Shown here piece after piece: positions 2,239 through 53,486 of a stretch of 54,113 nucleotides of DNA. Below the pieces are notes generated by a model. The model saw only the letters and a list, made by a program, of their open reading frames with translations. It was not told the DNA's origin and did no database searches. Location: the NCBI GenBank assembly GCA_919902445.1, contig CAKKQZ010000052.1, positions 1 through 54,113 on the forward strand, given 5' to 3'. Made by a program: the position numbers and the translations under genes. The stretch is from Omnitrophica bacterium GWA2_41_15 (GTDB taxonomy: Bacteria; Omnitrophota; Gorgyraeia; Gygaellales; Profunditerraquicolaceae). Each line of letters opens with the position of its first letter. The stretch's first letter is position 1.

Positions 2239-4929
2239 TTATCCTTTAATAACACCAACCGGGCGCATGCGGCAGACGCGTTTTGAAATACCCGCGTTGT
2301 GCACGACATCTACCACATCATTTACATCTTTATAAGCATCCGGGGCTTCTTCGACTATTGTGCCGCGCCCGGAAGCTTTTACCATTATACCCTTAGATTC
2401 CAGCTCTTTCAATAACACATTTAGGTTCGTTGACCTTGTTGAAGCAGCTCGGGATTTTACCCTTCCTGCCCCGTGACAATTCTTTACCAAAATAGGAGTA
2501 AATGTCTTTGTAAATACAAAATAATTATGATTATCTTCAACATCTATATTATATAATTCGCTAGTTCCTAAATCTCTTATTTTTCTTACTCTCTGCATTC
2601 TTAAAGGAGAATTAACTATTTTAGTGATTTGCTCTCTGTTATAACGCGAACTTGATTGCCAAACTAGAAATTTCAAAATTTTATCCTTCTCCATTAAATT
2701 ATTTCTATCGGCCTTTCGCTTAAAAGGCCATTTTATATTGCCCGAGTCCCAATTGTCAGTAAATAATTGACGGACAGAAAATAACTTGCTTCCATATTTT
2801 TGTTTATATGGTGCCCCCTTTACTCTTTTTGTGAATCTTAGGATTTCCTCAAGCTTTTCCGATATTTGAATTATATAACAACTATCCCTTTGGATTGACA
2901 CATATGGTAAAATTCCTAATTTTAAACATGAAAGAATAATCGCCCCTATAACATTTTCCTTACTATTAAATATACTTATTACTTTGTGCACAGGATTCCA
3001 AGTACCATCCCCATCTATAACACCCGCCAAGAAGTTAAAGGTACTTTCTATACTTAATCCTAAAATCCATGTCTGTAAATTCTCATATATATTCCTTATT
3101 TCTTCCACTGTATTCTTTCGGCCGGTTACAAAGTCACTGGCTGATCCTACTATCGTCCTCCCCCTTATATAACCAACACTAAATTTAGGTTTGCCTTCGC
3201 TTAAATCGTGCCCAAAGTATCCGAAAGAAGACTTCACATAATTTATAAAATCTAGTTTCTCTGCTGTTTCTTTCTGGGTAAATATAATCCTTTTTTGCTT
3301 TTTGTCGATATAACCATCGGTAACCAGTGCCCCTAGCAAAAAGGCTAAACTTGGATGATGCAAAATCCAAGGAATAGATACCTTATCCAAAACACAAATC
3401 ATCTTCTGGTTATCAATAATCTTCTCTATCTCTTCATACTCTAATCGCGCGTTATCAAAGAGTGAAAATTTATGATCCGAACTCGTATCTAAATTGCTAA
3501 ATCTAGATCTATTTGTCTGTGAAACCGATATTCTTATTGCCGAACCCATTCTTTTGCTCACGCCTAAAATAGGCTTCCATTCTACCAATAAATTTTCTTT
3601 ATTAAAAGATAACGCTTTGTAGGATAGTCCTAATTTATTGAGCTCATATATTTCTTTTAACGTGACAATCCCTTTATCAGTGAGAATTCTTGTATCTCCT
3701 GTAAAACACGTAGAATAAAAAGTCTCCACTGCCTTTTCTGTGCCGACCAGTAAATATGAATTCCTTCCCATATCCCCGGGAATTATTACCGGCTGGCCTA
3801 TTTTTTTATACCTTTGAGGCAACGCGGGATGGCCGGGAGGGAAAGCGCGGGTTGCGCCTTTCCTATGCACGCAAAGATTTTTTTCTTTTCCGTCAATAGT
3901 GTATTTTTCTATTTTTGCGATATTATGCGCGACATCGTAGATTAAATCCATACCCATCTTCTGCCAGGGCATATCAAAAACCCTTTCAAATGCCCTGCGG
4001 CAAAGGTGCATAAGGCACTGCCTGTTTGCCCAAGCGTAATTTGCAGCGCATCTCATCGCCCCTAAATACTGTTTTGCCTCAGGGGAGTTAACCGGAGCGC
4101 AAGCAAGCTGGCGGTCAGGGACATTGATGCTGTATTTGGAGAGGCAGTGGACCATATTCTTTAGGTAATCATCGCAAACCTGATAGCCGAAACCGCGCGA
4201 GCCGGAGTGAATCATCACGGTAACCTGGCCTAAAGAAAGCTCGAGCTCATCGCAGATATCGCGGTCAAAGAGCTGGTCAATTACCTGCACCTCCAAGAAA
4301 TGATTCCCTGAACCAAGTGTCCCTGATTGCGCCTTGCCTCTCTCATACGCCCTGTCAGAAACCGCTTCAGGGTCTGCGCCTGATATTGCGCCGTTTTCTT
4401 CCGTGCATTCCAGGTCATCCTGCGTGCCGTACCCTTTTTCAACCGCCCACCTGGAACCCTTCACCAATAGCTCTCTTTCCTCTTTAGAGCTTATCCTTAT
4501 GTCCCCTTTAGAGCCGACGCCTGCGGGCACATCGGAAAATAAAGCATAGACCAGATCCTTGATTTTATCCTTTATATCCTCAAACTGAAAGTTGGTTTTT
4601 ACCAGCCTTATTCCGCAATTTATGTCAAATCCGATTCCGCCAGGGGCAATTACTCCACCATCCTCTATATCCGTCGCTGCCACACCTCCTATACAAAAAC
4701 CGTATCCCCAATGGATATCCGGCATTGCTAAAGACGCATTTACAATGCCGGGTAGGAACGCTACATTAGCTACTTGCTCCAACGCCTTATCCTTATAAAT
4801 ATCTTTGAGCAGTTTCTCATCGGCATAGATAATCCCCGGCACGCGCATTCCCGGTTTATAGCTTATAGGTATGCGCCAACGGTAATTATCTATTTTATCT
4901 AATGAGCCTGGCCAGATATCAGACATCAA
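2239..4929 (-). CDS. rtcB: RNA 3'-phosphate/5'-OH ligase RtcB, interrupted by an intein
   Basis: 896 aa. RtcB motifs HWGYGFCIGGVAA, GSGNHFLEVQ and C-terminal CHGAGR. A 410-aa insertion lies between ...FYST and CHGAGR. Confidence 0.93.
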   Translation of the reverse strand: MMSDIWPGSLDKIDNYRWRIPISYKPGMRVPGIIYADEKLLKDIYKDKALEQVANVAFLPGIVNASLAMPDIHWGYGFCIGGVAATDIEDGGVIAPGGIGFDINCGIRLVKTNFQFEDIKDKIKDLVYALFSDVPAGVGSKGDIRISSKEERELLVKGSRWAVEKGYGTQDDLECTEENGAISGADPEAVSDRAYERGKAQSGTLGSGNHFLEVQVIDQLFDRDICDELELSLGQVTVMIHSGSRGFGYQVCDDYLKNMVHCLSKYSINVPDRQLACAPVNSPEAKQYLGAMRCAANYAWANRQCLMHLCRRAFERVFDMPWQKMGMDLIYDVAHNIAKIEKYTIDGKEKNLCVHRKGATRAFPPGHPALPQRYKKIGQPVIIPGDMGRNSYLLVGTEKAVETFYSTCFTGDTRILTDKGIVTLKEIYELNKLGLSYKALSFNKENLLVEWKPILGVSKRMGSAIRISVSQTNRSRFSNLDTSSDHKFSLFDNARLEYEEIEKIIDNQKMICVLDKVSIPWILHHPSLAFLLGALVTDGYIDKKQKRIIFTQKETAEKLDFINYVKSSFGYFGHDLSEGKPKFSVGYIRGRTIVGSASDFVTGRKNTVEEIRNIYENLQTWILGLSIESTFNFLAGVIDGDGTWNPVHKVISIFNSKENVIGAIILSCLKLGILPYVSIQRDSCYIIQISEKLEEILRFTKRVKGAPYKQKYGSKLFSVRQLFTDNWDSGNIKWPFKRKADRNNLMEKDKILKFLVWQSSSRYNREQITKIVNSPLRMQRVRKIRDLGTSELYNIDVEDNHNYFVFTKTFTPILVKNCHGAGRVKSRAASTRSTNLNVLLKELESKGIMVKASGRGTIVEEAPDAYKDVNDVVDVVHNAGISKRVCRMRPVGVIKG
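2479..3708 (-). mobile_element. intein with LAGLIDADG homing-endonuclease domain inside rtcB
   Basis: Residues 408-817. Starts CFTGDTRIL (Cys1, codon checked at 3706-3708) and ends HNYFVFTKTFTPILVKN followed by +1 Cys (2476-2478). Two LAGLIDADG-like motifs: LLGALVTDGYI and FLAGVIDGDGT. Confidence 0.85.
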
Positions 4930-5047
4930 GTTCTCCTTTTGCCCCTCGCCTACCCGCTTGAAAATTTCTTCAAAATTTTCTACGCAGGCTCGGGATTAGT
5001 TCGGCCAGAGACTTACGCACGCTTTAGCTCCGTAAGTCTCGGCCTCA

Positions 5048-5464
5048 CTAAACATCAAAAATCACCTCTGCCTGCCACCTGTAATCAATCTTTTCTATTT
5101 TTAATTCATGGTAGGTGGCGGCTTTGATTTCGGTGTTAACTTTAAAATTTATTATATCGCTACCCGCGGCCGCAGCCTCAAGCTCTTTTTCATTTAATTT
5201 ATTTATCTTAATATCTTCAAAGATAACTTCTTTTGCCGCGGATAAAGATAATAATTCATTCAGCCAATTAACAAAAAGCTCCTCTAAGTTTTGCGCATTT
5301 TGGCTGATTGAAAATTTGTGCTTCTTTTTATCTTTGGTTATTTGTCTTTCCGCTGAAATCTGAAATATGGCAAGGCCGGCATTCTTAAAAAGATCATCCA
5401 GGCCATTGCCTCTTACCCTTACTTTTAAGTCTGCGGTGTGCTCGAGGATTTCGAAAGTTTTCAC
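5048..5464 (-). CDS. archease (RtcB activator family)
   Basis: 138 aa. N-terminal ILEHTADLKVRV signature typical of archease. Sits immediately upstream of rtcB. Confidence 0.85.
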   Translation of the reverse strand: MKTFEILEHTADLKVRVRGNGLDDLFKNAGLAIFQISAERQITKDKKKHKFSISQNAQNLEELFVNWLNELLSLSAAKEVIFEDIKINKLNEKELEAAAAGSDIINFKVNTEIKAATYHELKIEKIDYRWQAEVIFDV

Positions 5465-5552: not shown

Positions 5553-5612
5553 GTTATTTGTGTTATATTTTAACTTAAAATATGGAGCCCTGCAAGGGGG
5601 ATTTATCTATGA

Positions 5613-6074
5613 TTAAAAACCTAAAACCGTATCAACTTCGCCTATATCTTTCACAATGCCATTTATCAAAGTAATCCTAATTTTTACTCCTTCTCCTATA
5701 AATTTCGTCCATCCAAACTTACCAACATCCGAATATCTAAATACTTTTTTATTCTTTCTCCATCCTTTTAAAATGCGGTTGGGCTTAGCCATAGTTAAAA
5801 CTTGTTCTTCGCTCATATCTAACATAACCCTGCAATTTCTCATTTTCTCCGCTACCTCTTTGCTTGTCTGCGGGTGTAGTAGTAAATACTGGTCTATTTT
5901 TTTCTGATACTCTTCTTTTATTGTATTATCTTCTAAATTGTTTTTGCTCCAGTAAGCATACCAAGCTAAACTGGCTTCTCCTATATGAGGGTATTTAGTA
6001 GAAGTGGCCATGCAGCCAGACATAATAAATACCACGGCCAATACCCAGGCAAATATTAATTGTTTTTTATTCAT
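5613..6074 (-). CDS. putative lipoprotein, unknown function
   Basis: 153 aa. Signal peptide ending in the lipobox-like FIMSGC. Confidence 0.55.
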   Translation of the reverse strand: MNKKQLIFAWVLAVVFIMSGCMATSTKYPHIGEASLAWYAYWSKNNLEDNTIKEEYQKKIDQYLLLHPQTSKEVAEKMRNCRVMLDMSEEQVLTMAKPNRILKGWRKNKKVFRYSDVGKFGWTKFIGEGVKIRITLINGIVKDIGEVDTVLGF

Positions 6075-6199
6075 TTTAAGCAGCGAGAATAGGTTATCGT
6101 TAGCAAGGTAACGACAGCTAAAAATAGCTCATTATTTTAACATTATTAAGTTAAAACTCAAACTTTTTCTTATATAGCTTTTTCTTATATAGCTTCTGA

Positions 6200-6390
6200 T
6201 TGATGCCATCCAACGGGTGGATTGGCTGATGCTTTAAGCGGGGCCTGTGGAAGCCTCGAGCGGGCAAGGTTCACCCTCTATTAAGTTGTCAGTGAGAGCG
6301 AGGGGCTCAGAACGGAGTGCAGTTGCGGCACGCTCTTGCCGCAACAAACGTCCCCGCTAAAGCACAGCCAAGACAGGACCCACTGCCTTA
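6200..6390. ncRNA. candidate structured RNA of unknown class (strand undetermined)
   Basis: GC-rich island in an AT-rich 397-bp divergent spacer. Long-range pairing GGCTGATGCTTTAAGCGGGG (6224-6243) with CCCCGCTAAAGCACAGCC (6352-6369). Perfect 9-bp hairpin GTTGCGGCA-cgctct-TGCCGCAAC (6322-6345). Hairpin GCCATCCA-acggg-TGGATTGGC (6205-6226). Confidence 0.4.
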
Positions 6391-6471
6391 TAGAATTTAG
6401 ACAAGGTTGAGTGTGCTGTTTCCGATAGAATTAGCTTGTAATTAGAGAAAAAGTATAATAGAATTTCTTAC

Positions 6472-7032
6472 ATGAAACGGGTATTGTTTATAGTTTTCAT
6501 ATTGCTTTGCCTCTGTTTACCGGGCTGCTCTGTGCCAAGGGTAGCTACTTACAGCCACCTAAAAAGCATTACCAAGAAAGAGATAAAGCCCAAGGGGATG
6601 TTCGGCGGGAACAAATCAGTATCCATTTACGATTTCCGCGGAATTGAAAGGTACGATGAGGATATAGACGCCCTAAAGGTGAGGGTTGAAAAATATATTT
6701 CAAGCCATCCTGATTTAAGCGGCGCCGCCAAAAATAACCTCCGAGAATTAAAAGCCTCCGAAGGCGCAGCAAAAGAAGAGGTTGAATTGCTTCTGGGAAA
6801 GCCGGATAAAGTTATCAAGCCATCAGGCAAAACTCAAGACACATCTGAAATCTGGATTTACAGCAAGAGTAAATTAAACGCCTTTACGGTATTTATTTTT
6901 CCTGTCTTCCCTACCCACGAAAGATACTATCTGTATTTTCAAGGCAATACGCTCGCCAATATTGAAAAACATTATCTGGAACAGCTCCTGGAAAGCACCT
7001 CCCCCGCAGACCCCTCTGATAAGAAATTATAA
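6472..7032 (+). CDS. putative lipoprotein, unknown function
   Basis: 186 aa. Signal peptide with lipobox LPGC. The only convincing plus-strand gene. TATAAT at 6454-6459 lies only 12 nt before the ATG and there is no SD. Confidence 0.55.
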   Translation: MKRVLFIVFILLCLCLPGCSVPRVATYSHLKSITKKEIKPKGMFGGNKSVSIYDFRGIERYDEDIDALKVRVEKYISSHPDLSGAAKNNLRELKASEGAAKEEVELLLGKPDKVIKPSGKTQDTSEIWIYSKSKLNAFTVFIFPVFPTHERYYLYFQGNTLANIEKHYLEQLLESTSPADPSDKKL

Positions 7033-8188: not shown

Positions 8189-8198
8189 ATCCCCCTCC

Positions 8199-8347
8199 TT
8201 AATGAACGCATAATTTACGAACACGAAGTGTGAGTAAATTATATGCGCGAATTAATCCCGCATCTTGCTTTCCTAAGGTAACGGCGGGAGAAATTCAAGC
8301 AAAACTTACGCAACATTAGTAAACGTAAGTTATTTGTGCGAATTACG
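8199..8347 (-). repeat. intergenic hairpin cassette (modules A, C, D-like) forming the 5' UTR of the CBM48 gene
   Basis: A: 8199-8253, GCATAATTTAC...GTAAATTATATGC flanked by TTAAT. C: CCCGC...GCGGG, 8254-8297. Third hairpin AAACTTACG...CGTAAGTT, 8299-8344. Confidence 0.8.
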
Positions 8348-8352
8348 TCTTA

Positions 8353-8381
8353 TTTATACACAACAACTTTGACGCTGTCAA
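8353..8381 (-). promoter_or_regulatory. sigma70-like promoter TTGACA-N17-TATAAA (with TG)
   Basis: Minus strand: TTGACA (8381-8376), 17-nt spacer, TATAAA (8358-8353) preceded by GTG. Lies directly upstream of the hairpin cassette. Confidence 0.5.
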
Positions 8382-9193: not shown

Positions 9194-9205
9194 ATGCTTA
9201 TTCTT

Positions 9206-9282
9206 TAGGGACGTTTCTTAACTTAGCTATAAGGTGTCCCCTACACGGGGACACTTTATAGCTGGCTTGAGAAACGTCCCTA
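9206..9282. repeat. 77-bp palindromic element, TAGGGACG...CGTCCCTA (copy 1)
   Basis: Outer arms TAGGGACGTTTCT/AGAAACGTCCCTA and inner arms GTGTCCCC/GGGGACAC. A second 77-bp copy lies at 30091-30167. Confidence 0.85.
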
Positions 9283-9288
9283 CTTTTA

Positions 9289-10071
9289 CTATTTACGGCA
9301 GGAGTGGGCTATACCGCGTTGCGACTTTTTTATAAAATTGATGAGGTAAGCGATTTCCTGAGTAGGCTCAATCTCTTTCTCAATTTTTTCAAGGGAGTGT
9401 TTTATAGTAAGGCCTTCGTTGAGTAATGCCTTGAAAGCGCGGCCAAGCGAATCTATAGAATCTTTGGAAACTTTTTGCCTCCTTAATCCGACGATATTTA
9501 ATCCGTATACGCGCGCAGGATGGCCATCGCAGGTAGAATACGGAGGAATGTCCTGGGTAACCTTAGAGCATCCTCCGATAATAGAAAGCGTGCCCACCCT
9601 GACAAACTGATGTATGGCAACCAGCCCGCCGACTACAGCTTTGTCTTCGATAGTTACATGGCCCGCAAGCGTGCCGTTGTTGGCAATAACGCAGTTACTG
9701 CCTACAACGCAATCATGCGCAATATGCGAATAGGCCATAAAAAGATTATCGTTTCCGATAACTGTCCTTGAGCCCTCTTCTGTGCCGGGGTTAAATGTGC
9801 AATATTCACGGATTATATTTCCGCTTCCTATATCTAAAAAGACTTTTTCTCCCTTATATTTTAAATCCTGAGTCCGCGACCCAATTACTGCCCCGGTAAA
9901 AATTTCACAGCCGCGCCCTACAGTGGTATTACCCTCTATTAAACAATAGGCGCCGATCTTTGTCTGGCCGCCTATTGCAACAGTGTCACTTATAATAGAG
10001 TAAGGGCCGACTCTGACATCATCGGCCAATTTTGCTTTTTTAGAAACTATTGCTGTCGGGTGAACCTGCAT
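9289..10071 (-). CDS. lpxA: acyl-ACP--UDP-GlcNAc O-acyltransferase
   Basis: 260 aa. Left-handed beta-helix hexapeptide repeats plus a helical C-terminal domain. lpx cluster context. Confidence 0.9.
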   Translation of the reverse strand: MQVHPTAIVSKKAKLADDVRVGPYSIISDTVAIGGQTKIGAYCLIEGNTTVGRGCEIFTGAVIGSRTQDLKYKGEKVFLDIGSGNIIREYCTFNPGTEEGSRTVIGNDNLFMAYSHIAHDCVVGSNCVIANNGTLAGHVTIEDKAVVGGLVAIHQFVRVGTLSIIGGCSKVTQDIPPYSTCDGHPARVYGLNIVGLRRQKVSKDSIDSLGRAFKALLNEGLTIKHSLEKIEKEIEPTQEIAYLINFIKKSQRGIAHSCRK

Positions 10072-10073
10072 AG

Positions 10074-11390
10074 CTAACCTTCTACAAGTGCAAACATCAA
10101 ATCCGCTTCCGCTACCAATTTACCTTCTACAAAGGCCTTACCAAAGACCTGGCCGGTCTTGGATTTTATCCTGCCTGCTTCTACTTCCAAAACTAATTGG
10201 TCCCCGGGAAGGACTGTTCTCCTGAATTTTATATTGTTTGCGGAGAGAAAAAAAGCAAGCTTTCCTCGATTTTCTTCCGGGGCAAGCATCATTACTCCGC
10301 CTACCTGAGCCATTGCTTCGACTATTAAAACCCCGGGCATAACAGGCCTGCCGGGAAAATGCCCCTTAAAAAAATAATCCTCCATTGTCAGGTTCTTGAT
10401 ACCTGTGGCGCGTTTACCCATCTCCAGAGAAACAATTTTATCTATAAACAAGAAGGGGTCGCGGTGCGGGAGTATCTTCTTGATTGCTTCAACATCCAAT
10501 TCCTCTCCGGCAGCAGGATGATATTTTACCCCAATGCCTCCGGCAGAAAACCTCATCTTTTGCTGGCTTAATTTTTTGGCAAGTTTCAAGTTAAGGGAAT
10601 GGCCGCTTCTTAAAGCTATAATATGGCCTTTTAGAGCAGAACCTATAAGATAAAGGTCTCCGATCAAATCCAGCATCTTATGGCGCACAAATTCATTTTC
10701 AAAGCGCAATTTATTTTTTATTACGCCTTTTTTACCTACTACCAGAGTATTTTCATAATTTGCCCCGCGGCCCATGCCATGGCGCTGTAATTCATTCGCC
10801 TCATCTTCAAGGCAGAATGTGCGCGCGGAGGCAATCTCTCTCTTAAACACCTGCGGATTCAAATCCAGTTCCATAAAATCCGTCTTAAGCGCTGAATGAT
10901 TGTAGTTAAGCGTATAAGAAATCCTGAATTCCTCAGATGGCACTGCTATAATTGACGAGCCATCCTCCTCCACAAAGACCGGCTCCCTGATAGAATACTG
11001 CTGCCGTACTTTATCCTGCGCTGCTATGCCTGCTTTCTCGAGAATCTCCAGAAAATTTAAACTGCTCCCATCTAAACCAGGGACTTCGTTATTATCTATT
11101 TCGATATTAATGTTATCTATTGCACGGCCTGCCAAGGCTGCCATAAGGTGTTCTATCGTCTGCACATTAACAGAATCGGTTCCTATGGATGTGCGGCGCG
11201 GGGAAAACTGAGGGGGAAGCAAAGAATCAACGCAGGCTTTTATAACGGGTTTTCCGGGTAAGTCTATACGGATAAAATTAATACCTGAATCTATACCTGC
11301 CGGCTTGAATGTTAAATTAACTTTGTTCGCGGTATGTAAACCGATCCCCTTTAAACTTAATTCTTTTGCAATTGTATTCTGTTTAACCAT
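10074..11390 (-). CDS. lpxC-fabZ: bifunctional LpxC deacetylase / FabZ dehydratase fusion
   Basis: 438 aa. N-terminal LpxC-like region (GIGLHTANKV..., HKMLDLIGDL) and C-terminal FabZ hot-dog (LPHRDPFLFIDKI, GHFPGRPVMPGVL). Confidence 0.9.
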   Translation of the reverse strand: MVKQNTIAKELSLKGIGLHTANKVNLTFKPAGIDSGINFIRIDLPGKPVIKACVDSLLPPQFSPRRTSIGTDSVNVQTIEHLMAALAGRAIDNINIEIDNNEVPGLDGSSLNFLEILEKAGIAAQDKVRQQYSIREPVFVEEDGSSIIAVPSEEFRISYTLNYNHSALKTDFMELDLNPQVFKREIASARTFCLEDEANELQRHGMGRGANYENTLVVGKKGVIKNKLRFENEFVRHKMLDLIGDLYLIGSALKGHIIALRSGHSLNLKLAKKLSQQKMRFSAGGIGVKYHPAAGEELDVEAIKKILPHRDPFLFIDKIVSLEMGKRATGIKNLTMEDYFFKGHFPGRPVMPGVLIVEAMAQVGGVMMLAPEENRGKLAFFLSANNIKFRRTVLPGDQLVLEVEAGRIKSKTGQVFGKAFVEGKLVAEADLMFALVEG

Positions 11391-12488: not shown

Positions 12489-12639
12489 TTAATGAACACT
12501 TGACTTACGAATACGCTTAGTATGAGTAAGTCAATGTGTGAATTAATCCCCCCTGCATTCTTGCAGAATGCAAGAAGGGGGGATAAGTTCGGCCAGATAA
12601 CTTATGTAGGCTAAAAGCCTCCATAAGTTATGGCCTCAC
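12489..12639 (-). repeat. stop-to-start hairpin cassette (modules D-C-A) between skp and lpxD
   Basis: A 12489-12544 (ACACTTGACTTAC...GTAAGTCAATGTGT), C 12545-12585 (CCCCCC...GGGGGG), D 12586-12639 (GGCCAGATAACTTATG...CATAAGTTATGGCC). Abuts the skp stop codon. Confidence 0.85.
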
Positions 12640-13161
12640 TTATTTCTTATAACCTTTGTTTAGCAAATCCACTATTCTTTCGGTTATATCAAGTTTTTTA
12701 TCCTGATAAACCAGCACCCTGTCGTTGAAAACAAGGGTGTACCCTTCTTTTTCAGAGTATTTATTCACTGTCTCTTCTACGTCTTTAAATATCTCTCTCG
12801 TCTTCTCATCATTCTCTTTACGCAGGTCAGCCTGTTTCTGCCTGTCATTTTCCTGAAAGGTTTTTACTTTTGCTTCCAGGTCAGGCCTTTTTGCTTCCTT
12901 TTCCTTGTCGCTTAATAAATTTACCTTGTCCTGAAAGGCCTTGATATCGCTTACCTTCTTTTCTTTTTCCGCGATATAGGCACTTTCTTTTTCGGTCAAT
13001 ACCTTTTCATACTCCTTAGCTTTATTATATTCGGCGAATATGCGGCTTAAATTAACATATGCGAACTTTCCCTCTGCGGCCGCCTGCCCTGCAAGGCACA
13101 TTAAAACAAAAGCTCCCAAAAAAACTCCTGCCACCTTTCTCATCTTGTTTCCCCTCCTCAA
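12640..13161 (-). CDS. skp: OmpH/Skp periplasmic chaperone
   Basis: 173 aa. Signal peptide followed by a Lys/Glu-rich coiled coil. Positioned between bamA and lpxD. Confidence 0.8.
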   Translation of the reverse strand: MRRGNKMRKVAGVFLGAFVLMCLAGQAAAEGKFAYVNLSRIFAEYNKAKEYEKVLTEKESAYIAEKEKKVSDIKAFQDKVNLLSDKEKEAKRPDLEAKVKTFQENDRQKQADLRKENDEKTREIFKDVEETVNKYSEKEGYTLVFNDRVLVYQDKKLDITERIVDLLNKGYKK

Positions 13162-13300
13162 TTTCCCTCTTTTTCTACCCGGAAATTGATCCCGAGCGAA
13201 ACGAGGGATTAAACTTTCTACCAGTAAATTAATCCCGTTAGAAATTTTGCGTTTGAATTTTTTGTCAATCCGGTATTTCTAATGGGATAAATTCAGCCAT

Positions 13301-13390
13301 CAAACTTACGTTCACTTCCCGCTAATTATGTAATATCGGGCGGGACCCCGCCGTTAACCTAAGTTAGGGTAGCGGGGGTTCCGTAAGTTT
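13301..13390 (+). repeat. ACTTACG hairpin with a CGGGACCCCG double hairpin nested in its loop (inverted orientation)
   Basis: CAAACTTACG-TTCAC-[TTCCCGC...GGGCGGGACCCCGCC...AGCGGGGG]-TTC-CGTAAGTTTG on the plus strand, opposite to the other module-A copies. Confidence 0.75.
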
Positions 13391-13399
13391 GGGCTTCAT

Positions 13400-15847
13400 T
13401 TAGAATCCATGGCTTGCGCTGAAGTGGAATCTTCCGCTGTTTTTATCATCTTCGCCAGGGGCTTTATTTAAGGGTATGCCGTAATCAAGCATTATCGGGC
13501 CGATGGGGGTTTTAAGCCGAAGCCCCAAACCAATACCTGATTTAAAACCGCCTGTTTCCTTAACACCGTTTGCGTCTTCCGACGAACCGAGATCGCCTAA
13601 CTTTGACCACACATTTCCTACGTCATAAAATGCAGCCACTTTAAGAAAGTTGAATAAAGGATACGTATACTCGATATTGCCGATAGCCATAGAATTTCCG
13701 CCTAACGGGTCCTTTGACGCGGGGTCAATAGGGCCTAATGACCTTTCCTCGTAACCTCTTACCGAGGAAGCGCCGCCTGCAAAGAATCTTTCGTATATCG
13801 GTATACGCTCGGTATTTGCGTAGGCAGCGGCTAAACCTACCCTCCCCCTTATCTCCAGGACAGAATTTAAAGGCATTGGGAAATAATGCGAAGCGCGGCC
13901 GAAAAATTTCCAGAAATCCTTATCCCCTGCTAACGGCCCGCCGGCCCATTGGACTGAACCATTAAAGTAATCGCCTTTTCTTGGGTCAAAGACATTATCG
14001 CGGCTGTCAAAGGTAAGGCCGGGAGAAATACTGCTGACTGTATTCTTCCCAACTTCCTGCTTTAAGTCATTTGTGGCATTATCAGTTATGTTAGAGATAT
14101 CAATCTCTTCAATCTTGTACATCAAATCAGACCTTAAATATTCGCTTATTTCTTTGCCCAGGCGAAGGTCCCCCCCGGTAATTTTTTCATCATAACCGTA
14201 ACCAACATCGGAATCCCTTTTACGCTCGCGCCTGTAGGCGTCAAAACCAAAAGATACAGGATAATCAAAAATCCAGGGCTCTGTAAAACTTAAATCAAAG
14301 CCGCTGCTGACAGTTCCGAATGAAGCGCGGAATTTCAAATTTTGCCCGCCTCCGGTAAAATAAGGAAAATTCTTCCAATCAAAATTCTTCTGCTCTACCT
14401 CTACAAACCCTACGAACTGGTCAACCGTACTGTAACCTCCGCCAAAGCTAAAAGACCCGGTCTTTGTTTCCTTCACCTCAACTATCAAATCTTTTTTATC
14501 AGGCAGATTTGTATCCTCGGTATCGTAACTGACCTCTTCAAAGAACCCTAAGTTCTGCAGCCTCTCCTTGCTGCGGCGAAGTTTTTCTCCGTCAAATTTT
14601 TCTCCGGGACGAATCCTTAATTCACGGCGTATAATCACGTCTTTGGTCTTTACGTTCCCCCTTATCTTAACCTTAGCCACATAAGCAACTTCATTTTCAG
14701 TAATGTTGTAGGCGATATCCACGCGCCCGGTCTGCGAGTTAACAGAAGTTGTATCCTGAATTTGGGCAGATATGTATCCTTTATCAAAATACAGGCCATG
14801 GATACTGGCGGCATCGCTCTTTAGCGCTTCATCGCTGAAAACCTTACCCGGGATACACTCTTTAAGCGTAGCCAGTATCTCCTTCTCAGGAATTTCCTTA
14901 TTACCTTGTATAGTTACATTGCCGGCCAGATATTTTTTACCCTCCTGTATCTTTATGTAGATGTATAAAGAATAGGTTTTTTTGGCATCCGGCTTGACTT
15001 CATAATTAACCACTGCGTCGGTAAAGCCGCCTCTGGTGTAGAAAGACTTTATACGCTCAATATCCTCCTTTAATACCTCATCCTTCAGGACCCCTGCGTT
15101 AAAAATCCATGCGCGTTTTGTCTTCAGTAATTTTAGGATGCGTTTTTTTGGAAACGCCTTATTCCCTTCTACAGCTATATCTTTAATCCTTACCTTCTTG
15201 CCCTCCAGGGCACTAAATTCTACTTTTGCTTTATTAGTTTCTTTGTTTAGGTCGGCCTTGTAAGTTATCTGCGCTTGGCTAAAGCCCATTTTTTCATATA
15301 ACTTCTCAAGCGTGCGCACATCTTCGGTTAAATTCGGATAATCCAGATACTGCGTTTCTTTGGATTTAAGCATCCCTTTTAGTTTCTCATCCTTCATGGT
15401 AATGCGGTACATTCCGGAAAAACCAATCTTTTCTATGATGGGCCTTTCTACAACCGTGAGGATGATTTTTACGCCGTCTTTGTAATTTTGCGTATCTATT
15501 TTTATGTCGCTAAAATACCCCAGAAGGTAAAGCCGCTTTAAATCATCGCTAACAACATTCTCCTGATAAGGGCTGCCTATGCGGGTCTTCATCTTCGAAA
15601 CAATAGTATTGGTGCTTATGTTCTTATTCCCCTTTACATCTATTCCGGTAACTAATTTTAAGCCTTCGGGTGTTTGCGCTTCGATGGATTCCTGCGATTT
15701 TACTTCGGAGGCAACAGGGGAAGATTCGTCTGGTGGGGATTGCGCGAATACGCTTATACTGCTCCCTAATATTAAAAAAATTGAGAAAAACGTGGAAATT
15801 TTCTTACGCATTGTTGTTATTATATATGAATTGCCCGAGGTAAGCAA
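13400..15847 (-). CDS. bamA: outer-membrane protein assembly factor BamA
   Basis: 815 aa. Signal peptide, POTRA repeats, C-terminal beta-barrel ending ...SASHGF. Start is either TTG at 15847 (AGGAG 8 nt upstream) or ATG at 15811. Confidence 0.92.
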   Translation of the reverse strand: MLTSGNSYIITTMRKKISTFFSIFLILGSSISVFAQSPPDESSPVASEVKSQESIEAQTPEGLKLVTGIDVKGNKNISTNTIVSKMKTRIGSPYQENVVSDDLKRLYLLGYFSDIKIDTQNYKDGVKIILTVVERPIIEKIGFSGMYRITMKDEKLKGMLKSKETQYLDYPNLTEDVRTLEKLYEKMGFSQAQITYKADLNKETNKAKVEFSALEGKKVRIKDIAVEGNKAFPKKRILKLLKTKRAWIFNAGVLKDEVLKEDIERIKSFYTRGGFTDAVVNYEVKPDAKKTYSLYIYIKIQEGKKYLAGNVTIQGNKEIPEKEILATLKECIPGKVFSDEALKSDAASIHGLYFDKGYISAQIQDTTSVNSQTGRVDIAYNITENEVAYVAKVKIRGNVKTKDVIIRRELRIRPGEKFDGEKLRRSKERLQNLGFFEEVSYDTEDTNLPDKKDLIVEVKETKTGSFSFGGGYSTVDQFVGFVEVEQKNFDWKNFPYFTGGGQNLKFRASFGTVSSGFDLSFTEPWIFDYPVSFGFDAYRRERKRDSDVGYGYDEKITGGDLRLGKEISEYLRSDLMYKIEEIDISNITDNATNDLKQEVGKNTVSSISPGLTFDSRDNVFDPRKGDYFNGSVQWAGGPLAGDKDFWKFFGRASHYFPMPLNSVLEIRGRVGLAAAYANTERIPIYERFFAGGASSVRGYEERSLGPIDPASKDPLGGNSMAIGNIEYTYPLFNFLKVAAFYDVGNVWSKLGDLGSSEDANGVKETGGFKSGIGLGLRLKTPIGPIMLDYGIPLNKAPGEDDKNSGRFHFSASHGF

Positions 15848-15858
15848 GAAAAAAACTC

Positions 15859-16220
15859 CTATTCAATGCGGGCGATGTTTTCAAATCTTGTATATTCTTT
15901 GATAAATGAGCGCATAACTTATGGAACGATAGTGAACATAAGTTATTACGCGAATTAATCCTTGACACGTAAGGTTCAAATCTTAATGTCATCGAATTCG
16001 TGTCAAGCATAACCTTGTTACTCAATGCGGGCGATGTTTTCAAACCTTGTATATTCTTTGATAAATGAGCGCATAACTTATGGAATGATAGTAAACATAA
16101 GTTATTGCGCGAATTTTGAGCACACAAAGTTTCTATTAGCGAAATCCCGCGTAAGCGGGGACCCTTGACACGTAAGATTCAAATCTTAATGTCGTCGAAT
16201 TCGTGTCAAGCATAACCTTG
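15859..16220 (-). repeat. two tandem units, each a 52-bp copy of the dnaB 3' end plus hairpin modules
   Basis: dnaB tail copies at 15859-15910 and 16018-16069 match 16221-16272 at 51/52 and 50/52. Interleaved modules: A (15911-15956, 16070-16114), B (16116-16160), E (15962-16017, 16164-16220). Confidence 0.9.
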
Positions 16221-17588
16221 CTACTCAATGCGGGCGATGTTTTCAAATCTTGTATATTCTTTGATAAATGAGAGTTTCAAGGCGCCTACCGGCCCGTTAC
16301 GTTGTTTGGCAATAATAACTTCCGCCACCCCCTGATTGTCGGGCGTCGGATTATAATACTCTTCCCTTAATATCAAGACAACTACATCCGCATCCTGCTC
16401 TATTGCGCCGGATTCCCTTAAATCCGATAGCTGCGGCCGATGGTCTGTGCGCGATTCTACCGCGCGGGATAACTGGCTTATTGCTATCACCGGAATACTT
16501 AATTCGCGCGCAAGCGCCTTGAGTGAGCGCGAAATCTCAGAGATCTCCTGCTGCCTGTTCTCTGTATTATTACTTGAGCCGCTCATTAACTGCATGTAAT
16601 CCAGTATAATCAGTTTTATATCCTGGTGCGCTTTAAGGCGCCTGGCTTTAGCGCGTAATTGCATTACCGTTATACCTGCTGAATCGTCGATAAATATGGG
16701 GGCTTCGGAAAGTTTTCCCGCTGCCGCAGTAAGGCGCGGCCAGTCAGAAACAGCAAGGTAGCCCGTCCTGACCTTATGGGCGTCAACCCTGGCATGAGAA
16801 CAAAGCATCCTCTGAACAAGCTGCTCCTTGGCCATCTCTAAACTAAAAATCGCTAAGGGCACCTTTTCTATTACTCCGGCGTATTCTGCTATTCCCAGCG
16901 CAAAAGCGCTTTTGCCCATTGAGGGCCTTCCGGCAACAACCACAAGGTCCGAATTCTGCAGCCCGGCTGTCTTTATATCAAAATCAATATAGCCCGTCGG
17001 AATACCGGTAACATGCGCCTTCTTCTGATAAAGCCTGTCTATGGACTCAATACTATCCTTAACAATTTCTTTCAGGTGCAAGGTTGTGCCTGAACTTTTT
17101 CTATCGCTAACTTCAAATATAAATTTTTCGGCGCTATCAACCACCTCGTTGACATTGCCTTCACTTTCATAACATAAAGAAACAATCCGCGTGGCATTAT
17201 TTATCAGGGTCCTTAAGATACTTTTTTCCTTGACGATGCTTGAGTAGTGGCTGATATTTGCCGCTGTAGGAACAGAGTTTGCAAGCGCTGTTAAAAAACT
17301 TGGCCCCCCAACTTCCTCCAGCGTCTCCTCTTTTTTTAGCGCATCCGTCAAAGTGATCAGGTCAACCGGCTTATTGGCGCTGTAAAGGCTTATGATTGCC
17401 TCAAATATTTTACGGTGGCTGTCTTTGTAAAAAGAATCCCTGTCCAGCATTTCACTGGCAACTGAAATAGCATCTTCATCGAGCAGCATGGAACCTAATA
17501 CCGCCATTTCAGCTTCCAGGTTTTGCGGAGGAATTTTGTCTAATGATACTGAGCCGAGCATATTTTGCATTATTTCTTTACAATCCAA
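16221..17588 (-). CDS. dnaB: replicative DNA helicase
   Basis: 455 aa. Walker A GRPSMGKSAF and DnaB N- and C-terminal domains. Confidence 0.95.
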   Translation of the reverse strand: MDCKEIMQNMLGSVSLDKIPPQNLEAEMAVLGSMLLDEDAISVASEMLDRDSFYKDSHRKIFEAIISLYSANKPVDLITLTDALKKEETLEEVGGPSFLTALANSVPTAANISHYSSIVKEKSILRTLINNATRIVSLCYESEGNVNEVVDSAEKFIFEVSDRKSSGTTLHLKEIVKDSIESIDRLYQKKAHVTGIPTGYIDFDIKTAGLQNSDLVVVAGRPSMGKSAFALGIAEYAGVIEKVPLAIFSLEMAKEQLVQRMLCSHARVDAHKVRTGYLAVSDWPRLTAAAGKLSEAPIFIDDSAGITVMQLRAKARRLKAHQDIKLIILDYMQLMSGSSNNTENRQQEISEISRSLKALARELSIPVIAISQLSRAVESRTDHRPQLSDLRESGAIEQDADVVVLILREEYYNPTPDNQGVAEVIIAKQRNGPVGALKLSFIKEYTRFENIARIE

Positions 17589-18023: not shown

Positions 18024-18228
18024 TTAATGAGCCCACAACTTACGGAACGTCAGTGAACGTAAGTTGTTTGGGCGAATTATTGAGCACCTAAAGTTTCTAT
18101 TAGCGAAATCCCGCGTAAGCGGGGATCCCCACATCTTGTTTCCAAGCAAACAGCGGGATAAGTTCGGACAGATAAGTTATGTCGTTTAGATTTCTTATTA
18201 TATAGTTCTCCATAACTTATGTCCTTAC
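18024..18228 (-). repeat. full stop-to-start hairpin cassette (modules D-C-B-A) between rpsR and rplI
   Basis: A 18024-18078, B 18080-18124, C 18126-18158, D 18159-18228. It fills the whole spacer between the rpsR stop codon and the rplI SD. Confidence 0.85.
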
Positions 18229-18525
18229 TTAACGCGTATAAGGAATAAGTGAAAGGAACCTTGCCTTTTTTATTGCCTCGGCAATACGCCTCTCGTGTTT
18301 GGCGCAATTTCCTGAGATACGGCTTGAAACAATCTTTCCGCGCTCGGTAATAAAGGCCTCAAGCCTTTTTACATCCTTATAATCGATAGACTTCACCTTA
18401 TCCTCCGCGCAGAAACGGCAGAATCTTTTTCTGGCAGGCAGATGATCGCGCTTCTTAATAATTATCTTACCTCTGGCACCGGCTTTAGTGCCCGCTTTAG
18501 TAAATGTTTTTGTCTTAACTTTCAT
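18229..18525 (-). CDS. rpsR: 30S ribosomal protein S18
   Basis: 98 aa. [30 protein letters not shown] signature. Confidence 0.92.
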
Positions 18526-20740: not shown

Positions 20741-20839
20741 AATAATAAAACTCTCCTTAATGAGCCCACAACTTACGGAACGTTAGTTGTTTGGGCGAAT
20801 TAATCCCAATAACAATCTAATCGGTATTTCTAACTTAGG

Positions 20840-24058: not shown

Positions 24059-24092
24059 AAATTTATAAGCTGTGGCGTCCATACCCACCATT

Positions 24093-24159
24093 GTCCCGCT
24101 GAATCCATTCCTTATCGCCAGCGGGATCCCGCTGGCACTAATTATACGCTGCAGCGGGA
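24093..24159. repeat. CGGGATCCCG double-hairpin element upstream of tRNA-Gln
   Basis: GTCCCGCTG ... CCAGCGGGATCCCGCTGG ... CAGCGGGA. Same three-part architecture as 34820-34880, 50613-50685, 13316-13378 and 52143-52185. Confidence 0.8.
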
Positions 24160-24183
24160 GACGACATCCCAAAAATTTGGACA

Positions 24184-24579
24184 TTAAACCACTGTGGGTC
24201 CCTTTGTTTTCTCCTGCTCGTAGGCCTCCAAAACTTTTTTCTGTAAGTGTTCCCTGAATACCTGCGTTATAGGATGGGCGATATCTTTATGCTCCAATTG
24301 CGCGGTAGCTCCTGCTTCCGGGGTTACCGGGCGAACAGCCACAGGCAAGGGGCAAGCGCACTGGTTGCAAAATTTAGAGCGCAGTTCGTTCTTAAATGCG
24401 CACTTAGGGCAGGGCTGCTTTACTTTTCTTGAAGGCATGGCGATAAATAAGCCGCTTGTGCCATCTATCACTTTTATATTCCTGACTACAAAGGCATTGT
24501 CAAAGGTTACGGTGGCATATGCCTTTAGTTTTTTATCCGGTGAGTCCTTTAAAACCACCCTGACTTCTGTTATATCCAT
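24184..24579 (-). CDS. spoVG: SpoVG family protein with an inserted zinc-ribbon-like segment
   Basis: [12 protein letters not shown]...[36 protein letters not shown] ... DIAHPI. Start at ATG 24579 after GGAGG. CPKC...CNQC insert. Confidence 0.85.
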
Positions 24580-24604
24580 AGTTACCTCCGGTTGCAGAAA
24601 AACT

Positions 24605-25522
24605 TTAAACCGTCCTTGCGACAAAAACCCGCCAGGATTTCTCCTGCTTTTTAATTTCCCTGCTGACTCTAACGGCCTCCTTTCTGGAAGAAACAATACC
24701 GAACACTGCCGGACCGCTTCCGGACATCAAGATTGATTTAACGCCAAGGCCAGCGAGCCCCTCTTTAATCCTCCTAACTTGCGGATACTCACTTGCTGTA
24801 ACCTCTTCAAGGCTGTTATATAAAAGCAGGGGGATTAACGAAAAGGCTTTTTTTCTTAATGCCGAAAATATTATATTAACATCATATGCAGGGGTTGTCA
24901 ACCCAGAAAATTCCTGCCTGCCCTGCCTTGCCGGCAGGCGGGCGGCAGGGAGGGCATCCCACTTTTTATAAATCAGGGGGGTAGAGGCCTTTATTTTAGG
25001 GACAACCAGTATATGCCAAAGCCGTAAATCTTTAAGCCCTTCAAGGGGCGTAATTCTATCCCCGCGGTTTGAGCCTTTAGCAAAAGATGTATTATAAATA
25101 AAAAATGGAACATCGCAACCTACTTCCTTAGATAAAGTTACAAGCCTGCTTAAAGAAAGATTCACTTTCCAAAGCCTGTTTAAACCCAAAAACACGCTCC
25201 CTGCATTACTTGAGCCGCCTCCTAACCCTGCGCCGATAGGAATACTTTTTAGTATCTTTATATCCGCTCCCTTTTGAACTTTATACTTTTCTTGCAATAA
25301 CTTTGCGCCTTTGTAACAGAAATTAGTTTCATCTCTAGGAAGATCCGGATTAGCGCAAGATATCCTGATTAATTTATCGCGGCGCAGCTTCAGGGTTATA
25401 GTATCGTAAAGGTTTATTCTCTCAAAGAGGGTTTCGATATTGTGGTAATTATCAGGGCGTTTATTGAGGATTTGCAGGAAAAGATTTAACTTAGCGAAGG
25501 ATTTGACAATTAGGGTATTCAC
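24605..25522 (-). CDS. ispE: 4-diphosphocytidyl-2-C-methyl-D-erythritol kinase
   Basis: 305 aa. GHMP kinase motif [13 protein letters not shown] and N-terminal AKLNLFL. Confidence 0.9.
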
Positions 25523-29380: not shown

Positions 29381-29567
29381 TTAATGAGCCCACAACTTAC
29401 GGAACGACAGTGAACGTAAGTTGTTTGGGCGAATTATTGAGCACATAAAGTTTCTATTAGCGAAATCCCGCGTAAGCGGGGCTCCCGCATCTTGTTTTCC
29501 AAGGAAACAGCGGGAGAGGTTCAACCGCATAACTTATGGAGCGTAAACATAAGTTATCGGCACGGAC
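29381..29567 (-). repeat. hairpin cassette (modules D-C-B-A) forming the hisG 5' UTR
   Basis: A 29381-29435, B 29437-29481, C 29482-29518, D 29519-29567. Confidence 0.85.
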
Positions 29568-29571: not shown

Positions 29572-29600
29572 ATTATAACGGTATATTAATATTTTGTAAA
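29572..29600 (-). promoter_or_regulatory. sigma70-like promoter TTTACA-N17-TATAAT
   Basis: Minus strand: TTTACA (29600-29595), 17-nt spacer, TATAAT (29577-29572). Lies immediately upstream of the cassette. Confidence 0.55.
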
Positions 29601-30090: not shown

Positions 30091-30167
30091 TAGGGACGTT
30101 TCTCAACTTGAATATAAAGTGTCCCCTTTAAGGGGACACTTTACTAACGGCCTTAGAACCGTCCCTA
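30091..30167. repeat. 77-bp palindromic element, TAGGGACG...CGTCCCTA (copy 2)
   Basis: Same length, termini and inner GTGTCCCC/GGGGACAC arms as 9206-9282. Confidence 0.85.
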
Positions 30168-30172
30168 GTTTT

Positions 30173-44242: not shown

Positions 44243-44340
44243 TTAATGAGCACATAACTTACGAACACGATAGTGTGAGTAAGTTATTGTGCGAATTAAT
44301 CCCGCATCTTGCCTTCCAAGGGAACAGCGGGAGAAGTTCA
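44243..44340 (-). repeat. hairpin cassette (modules C-A) forming the nfu 5' UTR
   Basis: A 44243-44297 (GCACATAACTTAC...GTAAGTTATTGTGC, TTAAT on both flanks). C 44298-44340. Confidence 0.85.
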
Positions 44341-44343: not shown

Positions 44344-44372
44344 ATTATACCATTTAACCGGCAAAAAGGCAA
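44344..44372 (-). promoter_or_regulatory. sigma70-like promoter TTGCCT-N17-TGgTATAAT
   Basis: Minus strand: TTGCCT (44372-44367), 17-nt spacer ending in TGG, TATAAT (44349-44344). Confidence 0.55.
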
Positions 44373-50590: not shown

Positions 50591-50612
50591 CTCCTGATTC
50601 CTAATTTATTTT

Positions 50613-50685
50613 TCCCCGACTCAATCATTTAGATTATCTGGGTCGGGATCCCGACACCCAAATTATAAAACTATTGTGTCGGGAC
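50613..50685 (-). repeat. CGGGATCCCG double-hairpin element between rubredoxin and tpx
   Basis: TCCCCGAC ... GTCGGGATCCCGAC ... GTGTCGGGAC. The distal arm overlaps the last codons of rubredoxin. Arms co-vary (CGAC/GTCG here, CGC/GCG elsewhere). Confidence 0.8.
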
Positions 50686-53363: not shown

Positions 53364-53486
53364 GCTTTCCTCCTACCATAACAGACGCAGAAAAGGTCAA
53401 AATCTAACAGAAAATTTATCGCTCTTCTATTTCTATACTTATCTTTTCCACTCCGGCAGGCAGTTCTTTCACTACGATTTAGCTGT

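Follow-up and report, generated by a model that had tools for sequence, protein, structure and literature searches.

The stretch analysed here (the window) is 54,113 nucleotides (nt) of contig CAKKQZ010000052.1 from Omnitrophica bacterium GWA2_41_15, and it carries an intergenic family of imperfect hairpins whose arms change from copy to copy while remaining complementary within each copy. The window has a GC content of 42%, and nearly all of its genes lie on the minus strand. All are housekeeping genes, encoding seryl-tRNA synthetase, RtcB with an intein, archease, LpxI, LpxA, LpxC-FabZ, LpxD, Skp, BamA, DnaB, L9, S18, SSB, S6, Pth, L25, Prs, GlmU and HisG, among others. The Omnitrophota are widespread, uncultivated, and often ultra-small, and to our knowledge next to nothing is known of their gene expression or mobile DNA.

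Hairpin copies in the window and their anatomy

A covariance model of the hairpin (R1) was built and used to score the window copies in bits. The window holds 14 copies, 13 recovered by R1 and one interrupted, all intergenic and at a density of roughly one per 4 kb; the pattern CTTAYG-N5-25-CRTAAG has 8 matches in it, compared with 0.2 expected. The initial annotation had counted at least eight copies. All nine that it listed lie where it placed them with correctly quoted arms, including one described as loop deleted (20757-20801), in which the apical part is indeed missing, and one described as inverted (13301-13390), which proved to be interrupted by nested hairpins. The true total is higher, with five copies absent from that list: 4993-5054 (plus strand), 8287-8349 (minus strand), 12581-12645 and 18156-18234 (both plus strand), and 29527-29561.

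The element is an imperfect hairpin with a median length of 57 nt. In a copy lying before a start codon (start-side copy), read on the gene-sense strand, the 5′ arm starts with NN-AAT, which forms half of an outer stem of 5 bp, and continues with one strand of an internal loop (TC), a stem of 4 bp that is commonly GCAC or GCGC, a 1- to 2-nt bulge, and a 10-bp stem ending in ACTTAYG, followed by a variable tip; the 3′ side is made up of the complementary arm, TC, and ATT-N′N′. The TC/TC internal loop near the base is invariant, and a second TC/TC near the tip is frequent. The tip in many copies is a mini-hairpin closed by this second loop (e.g., ACG-TC-GCAC-TTC-GTGC-TC-CGT), and it is missing from four independent copies (L022, L073, L081, and window 20754-20806), which read YG-TTC-CR, a deletion between the TC repeats. 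The bulge, reported in the initial annotation at the same place in one arm, keeps its position in 127 of 127 pattern-selected copies (1 nt in 46 and 2 nt in 81). Minimum-energy DNA folds reproduce the structure equally well on either strand (z −4.3 to −8.5). The element nevertheless has polarity, because R1 scores 60 to 78 bits on one strand and about 14 on the other.

Of 173 copies, 153 (88%) have a second stable hairpin, designated C, directly adjoining their 5′ end, with a median of −18 kcal/mol and a length of about 50 nt. The junction has the consensus C-GGG-R-T-W followed directly by AATTC, and the C hairpins group into classes common to several species. C-like hairpins can also be nested inside the apical loop (window 13285-13405, L099, and L118), and the nested hairpin of L099 is bordered by duplicated TTCAC. 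Three window composites contain an additional module B (CCCCGCTTACGCGGGATTTCGCTAATAGAAACTTT...) between the C hairpin and the main hairpin (16126-16160, 18090-18124, and 29447-29481); module B was rejected as a common part of the element, as it is private to the window's population among the 188 loci examined. The features are as follows, with copies that follow a stop codon termed stop-side and SD standing for Shine-Dalgarno sequence.

4923-4929, minus strand: right copy of a 7-bp direct duplication TTGATGT (left copy, 5052-5058)
4930-4995, minus strand: C hairpin (4942-4995) and SD-bearing tail CAAAAGGAGAAC (4930-4941)
4993-5054, plus strand: stop-side copy of the AGTTC...TCACT subfamily; provides the archease TAG stop; R1, 65.3 bits
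8196-8258, minus strand: start-side copy, the one cited in the initial annotation; R1, 65.6 bits; DNA fold z −4.3 on both strands
8257-8288, minus strand: GC-rich C hairpin CCCGC...GCGGG, joining the AATTC end of copy 8196-8258
8287-8349, minus strand: degenerate copy with the 3′ end TTGAATT, not TCATT, just downstream of a conserved promoter-like site; R1, 33 bits
8353-8381, minus strand: promoter-like TTGACA-17-TATAAA, found also in relatives L128 and L129
12486-12549, minus strand: start-side copy abutting the LpxD ATG without an SD (TTCATTAATATG); R1, 60.6 bits
12548-12582, minus strand: C hairpin CCCCCC...GGGGGG between both copies of the Skp-LpxD composite
12581-12645, plus strand: stop-side copy whose outer stem holds the Skp stop TAA; R1, 62.2 bits; DNA fold z −7.1 and −8.5
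13189-13286, minus strand: an additional pair of C-type hairpins, 13234-13286 and 13189-13209, ahead of the Skp SD
13285-13405, plus strand: stop-side copy after BamA, with two GC-rich hairpins nested in the apical loop; R1, 60.3 bits
15900-15961, minus strand: copy within a 159-bp tandem duplication (second unit) that separates dnaB from bamA; R1, 70.9 bits
16059-16120, minus strand: copy within the same duplication (first unit), following a C hairpin (16164-16210) and module B (16126-16160); R1, 63.6 bits
18021-18083, minus strand: start-side copy before the SD and ATG of rplI (L9); R1, 66.7 bits, other strand 14.1; DNA fold z −5.1
18090-18157, minus strand: module B (18090-18124) and C hairpin (18127-18157) between both copies of the S18-L9 composite
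18156-18234, plus strand: stop-side copy after rpsR, core AAGTTAT/ATAACTT, sharing identical arms with the copy that relative L128 carries there; R1, 46.7 bits
20754-20806, minus strand: start-side copy before rplY (L25), apical mini-hairpin deleted between TC...TC repeats (ACGTTCCGT); R1, 52.4 bits
29378-29440, minus strand: start-side copy ahead of hisG, following module B (29447-29481) and a C hairpin (29484-29514); R1, 69.6 bits
29527-29561, minus strand: partial, degenerate copy of ambiguous orientation, just downstream of promoter-like TTTACA-17-TATAAT (29572-29600); R1, 25.3 bits
44240-44302, minus strand: start-side copy ahead of a NifU-like gene, following a C hairpin (44301-44331) and promoter-like TTGCCT-17-TATAAT (44344-44372); R1, 69.9 bits

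Directly after copy 8196-8258 come an SD (GGAGGGGG) and the ATG of a CBM48-domain gene, and a copy-C-copy composite separates the promoter-like site at 8353-8381 from this SD. The C hairpin at 13234-13286 belongs to the class CCC.TTAGAAAT...ATTTCTAACGGG, which is also the class nested in the L099 and L118 copies. The tandem duplication spans 15860-16235 with a period of 159 nt and carries the last ~18 nt of dnaB (ATCGCCCGCATTGA.TA.), a C hairpin, and a hairpin copy; the dnaB end is present three times.

Covariation and distribution across the Omnitrophota

We scanned one genome per bacterial or archaeal species for a pattern in which AATTC, AYTTAY, RTAART, and TCATT are the only required sequences and the arms may vary at will. 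The pattern matched at least 120 stretches, six of them AT-rich chance matches, and the remaining loci (at least 114) score 43 to 78 bits with R1 and are nearly all titled Omnitrophota, which places the element in at least 114 Omnitrophota genomes other than that of the window. The genomes bearing the element are deeply divergent (Adk 48 to 54% identical, L15 40 to 50%, GC content 31 to 61%). The same pattern matched 57 viral contigs, none of which scores with R1 or is a real copy. A control on the seven free arm positions, independent of the covariance model, gave 0 to 5 Watson-Crick pairs in the viral matches and 6 to 7 in 119 of the 129 Omnitrophota matches. A phage regulatory cassette of the T4 type (promoter and stem-loop) was ruled out, as the window is a housekeeping chromosome segment and no close phage match to it was found. 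The L9 protein of the window is known only from Hainich groundwater metagenomes, and the relatives picked via BamA carry the annotation Candidatus Omnitrophota. A known RNA family was likewise ruled out by Rfam 15, in which the window gives only 5 tRNAs at gathering score and an E-value scan of one composite gives only a chance-level match to RsmY (E 0.56). A literature search on Omnitrophota repeats did not find a paper describing the family, which is apparently undescribed. Beyond the copies first annotated, the analysis brought out this phylum-wide distribution, a fixed geometry relative to genes and to the second hairpin, and presence/absence differences between relatives.

Pairing is retained throughout the family while the sequence drifts. 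The 127 pattern-selected copies, drawn from different genomes and with free arms, have 111 distinct 5′ arms, and 96.8% of their cells pair, compared with 79.4% in shuffles and 27 to 41% in slid registers; double-sided changes number 431 against 114 expected. The compensation between copy-specific arms claimed in the initial annotation is thus far beyond chance. Across alignments, 95 to 97% of cells are paired versus 76 to 79% in shuffles. The positions fixed by the pattern covary as well in 55 extra copies found by R1 beyond the pattern: the outer stem AAT/ATT becomes AAGT/ACTT or AAGC/GCTT, and the core ACTTA/TAAGT becomes AGTTA/TAACT or ACTTAGC/GCTAAGT, with the TC/TC loop unchanged. An R1-guided alignment of 96 copies, which is structure fitted and so biased towards structure, has double-sided changes at 18 of 19 pairs compared with 12.1 expected, a value reached by 0 of 500 shuffles; the pattern-based result is free of that bias. 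The preservation of pairing in both kinds of alignment indicates that something acts on the hairpin itself. Selection on the hairpin had been proposed alongside regeneration of one arm from the other, which in its pure form is unlikely because the asymmetric features (the bulge and TC/TC loops) are conserved. The suggestion that compensation sets the family apart from known mobile repeats was overstated, since compensatory changes are reported to be common in REPINs, hairpins formed by two inverted repetitive extragenic palindromes (REPs) (PMC3116915).

The covariation extends into the flanks. The TTAAT pentamers that the initial annotation took for a target-site duplication are present in the window copies, where they form part of the helix. 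The bases immediately outside AATTC and TCATT pair with each other in 113 of 135 copies, compared with 48 expected, and the flank combinations seen are complementary (tt/aa, ta/ta, tc/ga, and tca/tga), while the direct repeat (an ATTAA pair) that a target-site duplication requires occurs in just 19 of the 135. The flanks are a covarying outer stem, and an inverted repeat was mistaken for a direct one since TTAA is self-complementary.

An RNA helix under selection is expected to accept G·U far more readily than A·C. A G·U wobble folds on one strand only, and the opposite strand reads an A·C mismatch, so the two kinds of mismatch can be compared. We counted 33 G·U-type and 26 A·C-type mismatch cells, each about 1% of cells. 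The transcribed strand is the TC strand in start-side copies and the GA strand in stop-side copies, and the G·U:A·C ratio did not shift with it (18:11 versus 13:12; Fisher p=0.58) in this small sample of 59 informative cells. As G·U-type and A·C-type mismatches are rare to the same degree regardless of the transcribed strand, the pairing looks to be selected in DNA and not in mRNA, and mRNA-level selection was rejected for lack of asymmetry both overall and by transcribed strand. Young copies that derive from perfect masters and decay neutrally would fit the mismatch data as well.

Gene boundaries and turnover between relatives

The hairpins occupy gene boundaries in a fixed orientation. In counts that rest on crude open reading frame (ORF) calls, the coding region always lies on the TCATT side, with a start codon after sense copies and a stop codon within the outer stem of antisense copies; the stop of the preceding gene found inside the outer stem is TAA in 22 cases, TGA in 9, and TAG in 3. 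Adjacent copies form 30 inward-facing pairs around a GC hairpin, 15 tandem pairs, and 0 outward-facing pairs, so that the usual layout reads stop of gene 1, reverse hairpin, C, hairpin, and SD-ATG of gene 2. Stop-side copies mainly belong to their own subfamily, with GGCC/AGCC basal stems and an AAGT/ACTT outer stem. Spacing on the start side is bimodal: about 44 copies have the start codon at 10 to 17 nt, typically behind an SD, and about 22 have an ATG 1 to 5 nt away and no SD. The SD core begins 0 to 4 nt past TCATT in 31 of 41 copies. The Skp-LpxD composite folds into three abutting hairpins joined by zero-length linkers (z −10.4). A consensus promoter and terminator scan was uninformative, with counts equal to those of shuffles: the terminator scan called none of the C hairpins, which lack T-rich tails, and its total equaled the shuffled control.

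Six loci in relatives with 74 to 86% BamA identity and conserved gene order reveal that the units are gained and lost between related genomes. Spacers of 0 to 12 nt in the relatives correspond to 150- to 370-nt composites in the window, and other sites are filled only in the relatives.

Skp-LpxD spacer: 155-nt composite in the window; 9-12 nt in four relatives
DnaB-BamA spacer: 374 nt in the window, with two copies in tandem duplication; 7-59 nt in 5 of 5 relatives spanning it
S18-L9 spacer: composite in the window; TAAATG in L129; L128 has a composite whose stop-side arms are the same and whose start-side copy is of a different subfamily
Prs-L25 spacer: filled in the window and in L129; empty in L128
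LpxD-LpxC spacer: empty in the window; filled only in L128

At a further boundary, archease and RtcB overlap by 8 nt in L128 and L129 (GATTTTTGATGTCTGATA). The window carries there an insert of ~118 nt composed of a reverse hairpin (4993-5054), a C hairpin, and the tail CAAAAGGAGAAC, flanked by the 7-bp direct duplication TTGATGT, of which the relatives have one copy inside the gene overlap. The insert brings a new stop codon (TAG) and an SD. In the ribosomal-protein operons of five divergent genomes the element occupies different spacers, which shows that its position turns over and that the composite cannot be a strong terminator. Insertion polymorphism was not seen among independent assemblies of the window's population. 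Two of these (L004 and L005, short-read assemblies) stop 34 nt upstream of rplI within a hairpin copy, and every contig of the closest relatives (80 to 86% BamA identity) is just 3.5 to 5 kb long. The repeat probably fragments Omnitrophota assemblies.

Several other features of these loci were recorded. A 'hollow' element (AATTCGCCTGCTCATTAA) lies directly 3′ of the LpxI stop in L128 (17057-17082) and L129 (about 16921-16945); it keeps both flanks and both TC dinucleotides, the hairpin interior is gone, and it could be a deletion remnant or an excision footprint. Before bamA, relatives L126 (1416-1463), L127 (2644-2702), L129 (9951-10000), and L130 (815-851) carry TTGATT-17-TATAAT, and the ATG lies 7 nt downstream of it, as in a leaderless mRNA; the window has the repeat-filled 374-nt spacer in place of this arrangement, and its bamA apparently starts with TTG. 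The RtcB proteins of the window (2239-4929, 896 amino acids [aa]) and of L128 (18937-21630, 897 aa) contain an intein with a LAGLIDADG domain, and the RtcB of L129 (18694-20151, 485 aa) has no intein. The window interval between tRNA-Lys and tRNA-Arg (5553-7032, about 1.6 kb) holds two ORFs without a Pfam match, 5613-6074 on the minus strand and 6472-7032 on the plus strand, the latter being the sole sizeable plus-strand ORF noticed among the mechanical ORF calls of the window; the matching archease/radical-SAM interval is just 200 to 310 nt in L128 and L129.

A second, unrelated family of long hairpins occurs on the minus strand 3′ of LpxA (9200-9290) and of a YqeY-like gene (30100-30175), with the sequence GGGACG.TTCT...AAAGTGTCCCC-loop-GGGGACAC...AGAAACGTCCC; the S18-L9 spacer of relative L127 is filled by a related hairpin, GGGACTGTCCC...GGGGACTGTCCCC. 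Additional small GC-rich hairpins of the TCCCGC...GCGGGA and GGGATCCCGAC types, like those nested in copy 13285-13405, lie upstream of tRNA-Gln (24060-24190) and of a peroxiredoxin-like gene (50590-50680). The window also encodes an LpxC-FabZ fusion protein (10074-11390), a SpoVG carrying an inserted zinc-ribbon segment (24184-24696), and, near its end, a Bro-N domain protein (52536-53363) beside a long non-coding stretch (53360-53750).

Interpretation and comparison with known systems

We hypothesize, with a probability of roughly 0.5, that the hairpins are an Omnitrophota-specific family of small, non-coding mobile DNA, maintained at the DNA level and similar to REPs and to bacterial interspersed mosaic elements (BIMEs). 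The mobile unit would be a variable GC-rich hairpin ending in GGG-R-T-W followed by the ~57-nt imperfect hairpin, whose fixed irregularities (TC/TC loops and the one-arm bulge) give it polarity. The units sit at gene boundaries with the TCATT end towards the coding sequence, often as inward pairs around one GC hairpin in the manner of BIMEs. The stems would need only to pair, and the loops and bulge would be read by a structure-specific enzyme acting in trans, which would recognize the folded single DNA strand and copy the unit to new boundaries like the REP-associated tyrosine transposases (TnpA-REP, or RAYTs). A structure-reading enzyme of this kind would explain why the stems covary freely without extra tolerance of G·U. 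A small effect on expression may be what allows the element to persist in compact genomes: stops in two frames lie at its outer end, an SD or a start codon adjoins its other side or is supplied by it, and in the transcript it forms hairpins that abut one another.

Several observations weigh against this hypothesis. No transposase, RAYT, recombinase, or HUH enzyme was found among the ~60 window ORFs, including the gene-sized ones, that were scanned against Pfam, and no enzyme recurs across ~120 element-anchored loci, where the recurrent families are ribosomal and secY-adk-map genes. A phmmer search of 964 kb with IS200/IS608 TnpA queries, covering ~0.5% of each genome, gave no match, which is weak evidence. 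In the loci examined there is no gene-carrying parent, and no inward-facing pair spans a gene. A flanking duplication occurs at one site only, and elsewhere the old spacer is simply replaced. A GTAG or CGTC tag or its complement lies within 24 nt of the ends in only 2 to 5% of 182 copies, in contrast to REPs, and the boxes are conserved phylum wide, far more widely than the genus or species group of REP-RAYT pairs. Start-side and stop-side copies are different subfamilies, and a relative with 74% BamA identity has the same arms at an orthologous site; both observations suit a host function at least as well as selfish spread.

One such function is somewhat unlikely on present evidence but compatible with a mobile origin, as the two can coexist: the hairpins would be host RNA elements that protect or process mRNA ends or insulate coupled genes, perhaps recognized by a phylum-specific RNA-binding protein or nuclease. 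Copies do lie inside transcripts, downstream of promoter-like sites and within ribosomal-protein operons. They abut an SD (31/41) or are followed 1 to 5 nt later by an ATG without one (~22), they hold stops in the outer stem, the composite is three abutting hairpins (z −10.4), and the start-side and stop-side subfamilies differ. An RNA role sits poorly with the absence of wobble tolerance and of any mismatch shift with the transcribed strand, and the conserved loops read UC/UC on the start side and GA/GA on the stop side, so that one RNA-binding factor could not find a common motif in the two; occupied spacers also turn over in relatives, many orthologous spacers lack the element, and there is no Rfam match. 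It is rather unlikely, though worth stating, that the two hairpins together form a self-contained cassette of gene boundaries that is mobilized by an enzyme other than a RAYT, with a stop side, an SD or start side, and translational re-initiation across a 150-nt insert. Its tight fold would keep the stop and the next start codon spatially adjacent, allowing ribosomes to re-initiate, which would explain the SD-less ATGs 1 to 5 nt past the hairpin and the insertions into overlapping genes and ribosomal-protein operons. Were this so, a phylum of very small cells would tolerate or use a mobile element as standard gene punctuation.

Classical cut-and-paste transposition would make the hairpins miniature inverted-repeat transposable elements, or MITEs, deletion derivatives of an insertion sequence whose DDE transposase binds terminal inverted repeats (TIRs) and makes a target-site duplication. 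The inverted-repeat arms, the filled and empty sites, the 7-bp duplication at the archease/RtcB insert, and the similar, outward-facing ends of the composites are in keeping with such an origin, which we nevertheless consider improbable: the putative TTAAT duplication is an inverted covarying stem and most filled sites lack a duplication, recognition of double-stranded TIRs does not require the arms to covary within a copy (111 distinct arms in 127 copies), neither hairpin of a composite is a copy of the other, and no parent insertion sequence or transposase was seen in the ORFs and loci examined. Very improbable, in our view, is an origin without any structural selection, in which quasi-palindrome correction, by intrastrand template switching or arm-to-arm conversion, keeps the arms complementary. 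It would introduce compensatory changes in one step and yield strict Watson-Crick pairing with G·U and A·C equally rare, and the repeated TC...TC deletions show replication slippage acting on the hairpins. Such correction would, however, erase the bulge and the TC/TC mismatches, and the bulge is kept in 127 of 127 pattern-selected copies; the TC/TC loop, fixed by the pattern in those 127, persists in most of the 55 copies found by R1 while neighbouring stems covary. The phylum-wide conserved boxes and the fixed geometry would also be left unexplained. We give least credence to a double-stranded DNA site, be it the operator of a dimeric regulator, a DNA-uptake signal, or an intrinsic terminator, which the conserved inverted core (AACTTAYG...CRTAAGTT), the intergenic position, and the neighbouring GC-rich hairpin might suggest. 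The core itself covaries (ACTTA/TAAGT to AGTTA/TAACT), and a binding site needs no arm-wide covariation. The core word is not enriched outside the hairpins (8-mer, 2 versus 2.8 expected; 6-mer, 48 versus 48.8), which rules out an uptake signal or binding word, and an intrinsic terminator is at odds with C hairpins without T-rich tails and with composites lying within ribosomal-protein operons and 5′ leaders.

The repeat probably accounts for fragmented Omnitrophota assemblies, serves as a sensitive marker of the phylum, and provides a natural setting in which to test how structured inserts between translationally coupled genes are tolerated by compact operons. Should the mobile family prove to have a partner enzyme, that enzyme would be a single-strand DNA recombinase or transposase of a new, structure-specific type whose substrate is well defined.

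Among other structured repeats, integron attC sites resemble the hairpin in architecture, with an outer helix that is short, a central spacer left unpaired, extrahelical bases in the inner helix, and a terminal structure that varies, and also in conservation of structure over sequence and in a position right after the stop of one gene and before the next. The Omnitrophota element differs from attC in having no RYYYAAC/GTTRRRY core sites, its outer stem being NNAAT/ATTNN or AAGT/ACTT; its flanking genes are syntenic housekeeping genes, not cassettes, and the window has no integrase. Correia elements, Rickettsia palindromic elements, and other structured MITEs of bacteria are likewise small intergenic inverted repeats that are co-transcribed, supply or overlap expression signals, and vary in occupancy between strains. 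Those elements have constant TIRs and a defined target-site duplication (e.g., TA), whereas here the arms are copy specific and the apparent duplication is a stem. A DDE-type MITE would have a direct duplication at each copy; the flanks here are complementary, with one 7-bp duplication at the level of a composite.

The resemblance to REPs and BIMEs is closer. REPs are 20- to 40-nt palindromes with an unpaired GTAG or CGTC tag, known from 8 phyla, including the Planctomycetes-Verrucomicrobia-Chlamydiae (PVC) group, and those with the CGTC tag have no known transposase (PMC3733652). The E. coli REPs require a conserved bulge for TnpA-REP activity and are recognized as single-stranded DNA on one strand only (PMC8266576). 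Like REPs, the Omnitrophota hairpins are high-copy, extragenic, imperfect palindromes (14 copies in 54 kb; z −4 to −8) with covarying stems, variable occupancy in relatives, and a location at gene ends within transcripts. The fixed-column bulge and TC/TC loop correspond to the stem mismatch or bulge of group 2 REPs, and the mosaic arrays of alternating orientation around linkers (30 inward pairs, 0 outward, and 15 tandem) correspond to BIMEs. They differ from REPs in their median length of 57 nt instead of 20 to 40, in an obligatory partner hairpin on one side, in the invariant TC/TC loops, and in ends (GGGRTW-AATTC and TCATT-WA) that carry no REP tag. REPINs offer a further parallel, as a long hairpin is the replicating unit, compensatory changes occur (PMC3116915), and copies form clusters and tandem arrays; a REPIN consists of two inverted REPs pairing together, while in the present family every hairpin is one unit by itself, and arms from the two hairpins of a composite are unrelated and do not pair. 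A REP-like superfamily without the GTAG/CGTC tag implies a further hairpin-recognizing enzyme. The analogy to RAYT- or Y1-type systems drawn in the initial annotation points to the closest known kind for this hairpin family, namely the REP/RAYT system, in which the substrate of the enzyme is a folded single strand (PMC8266576, PMC3733652).

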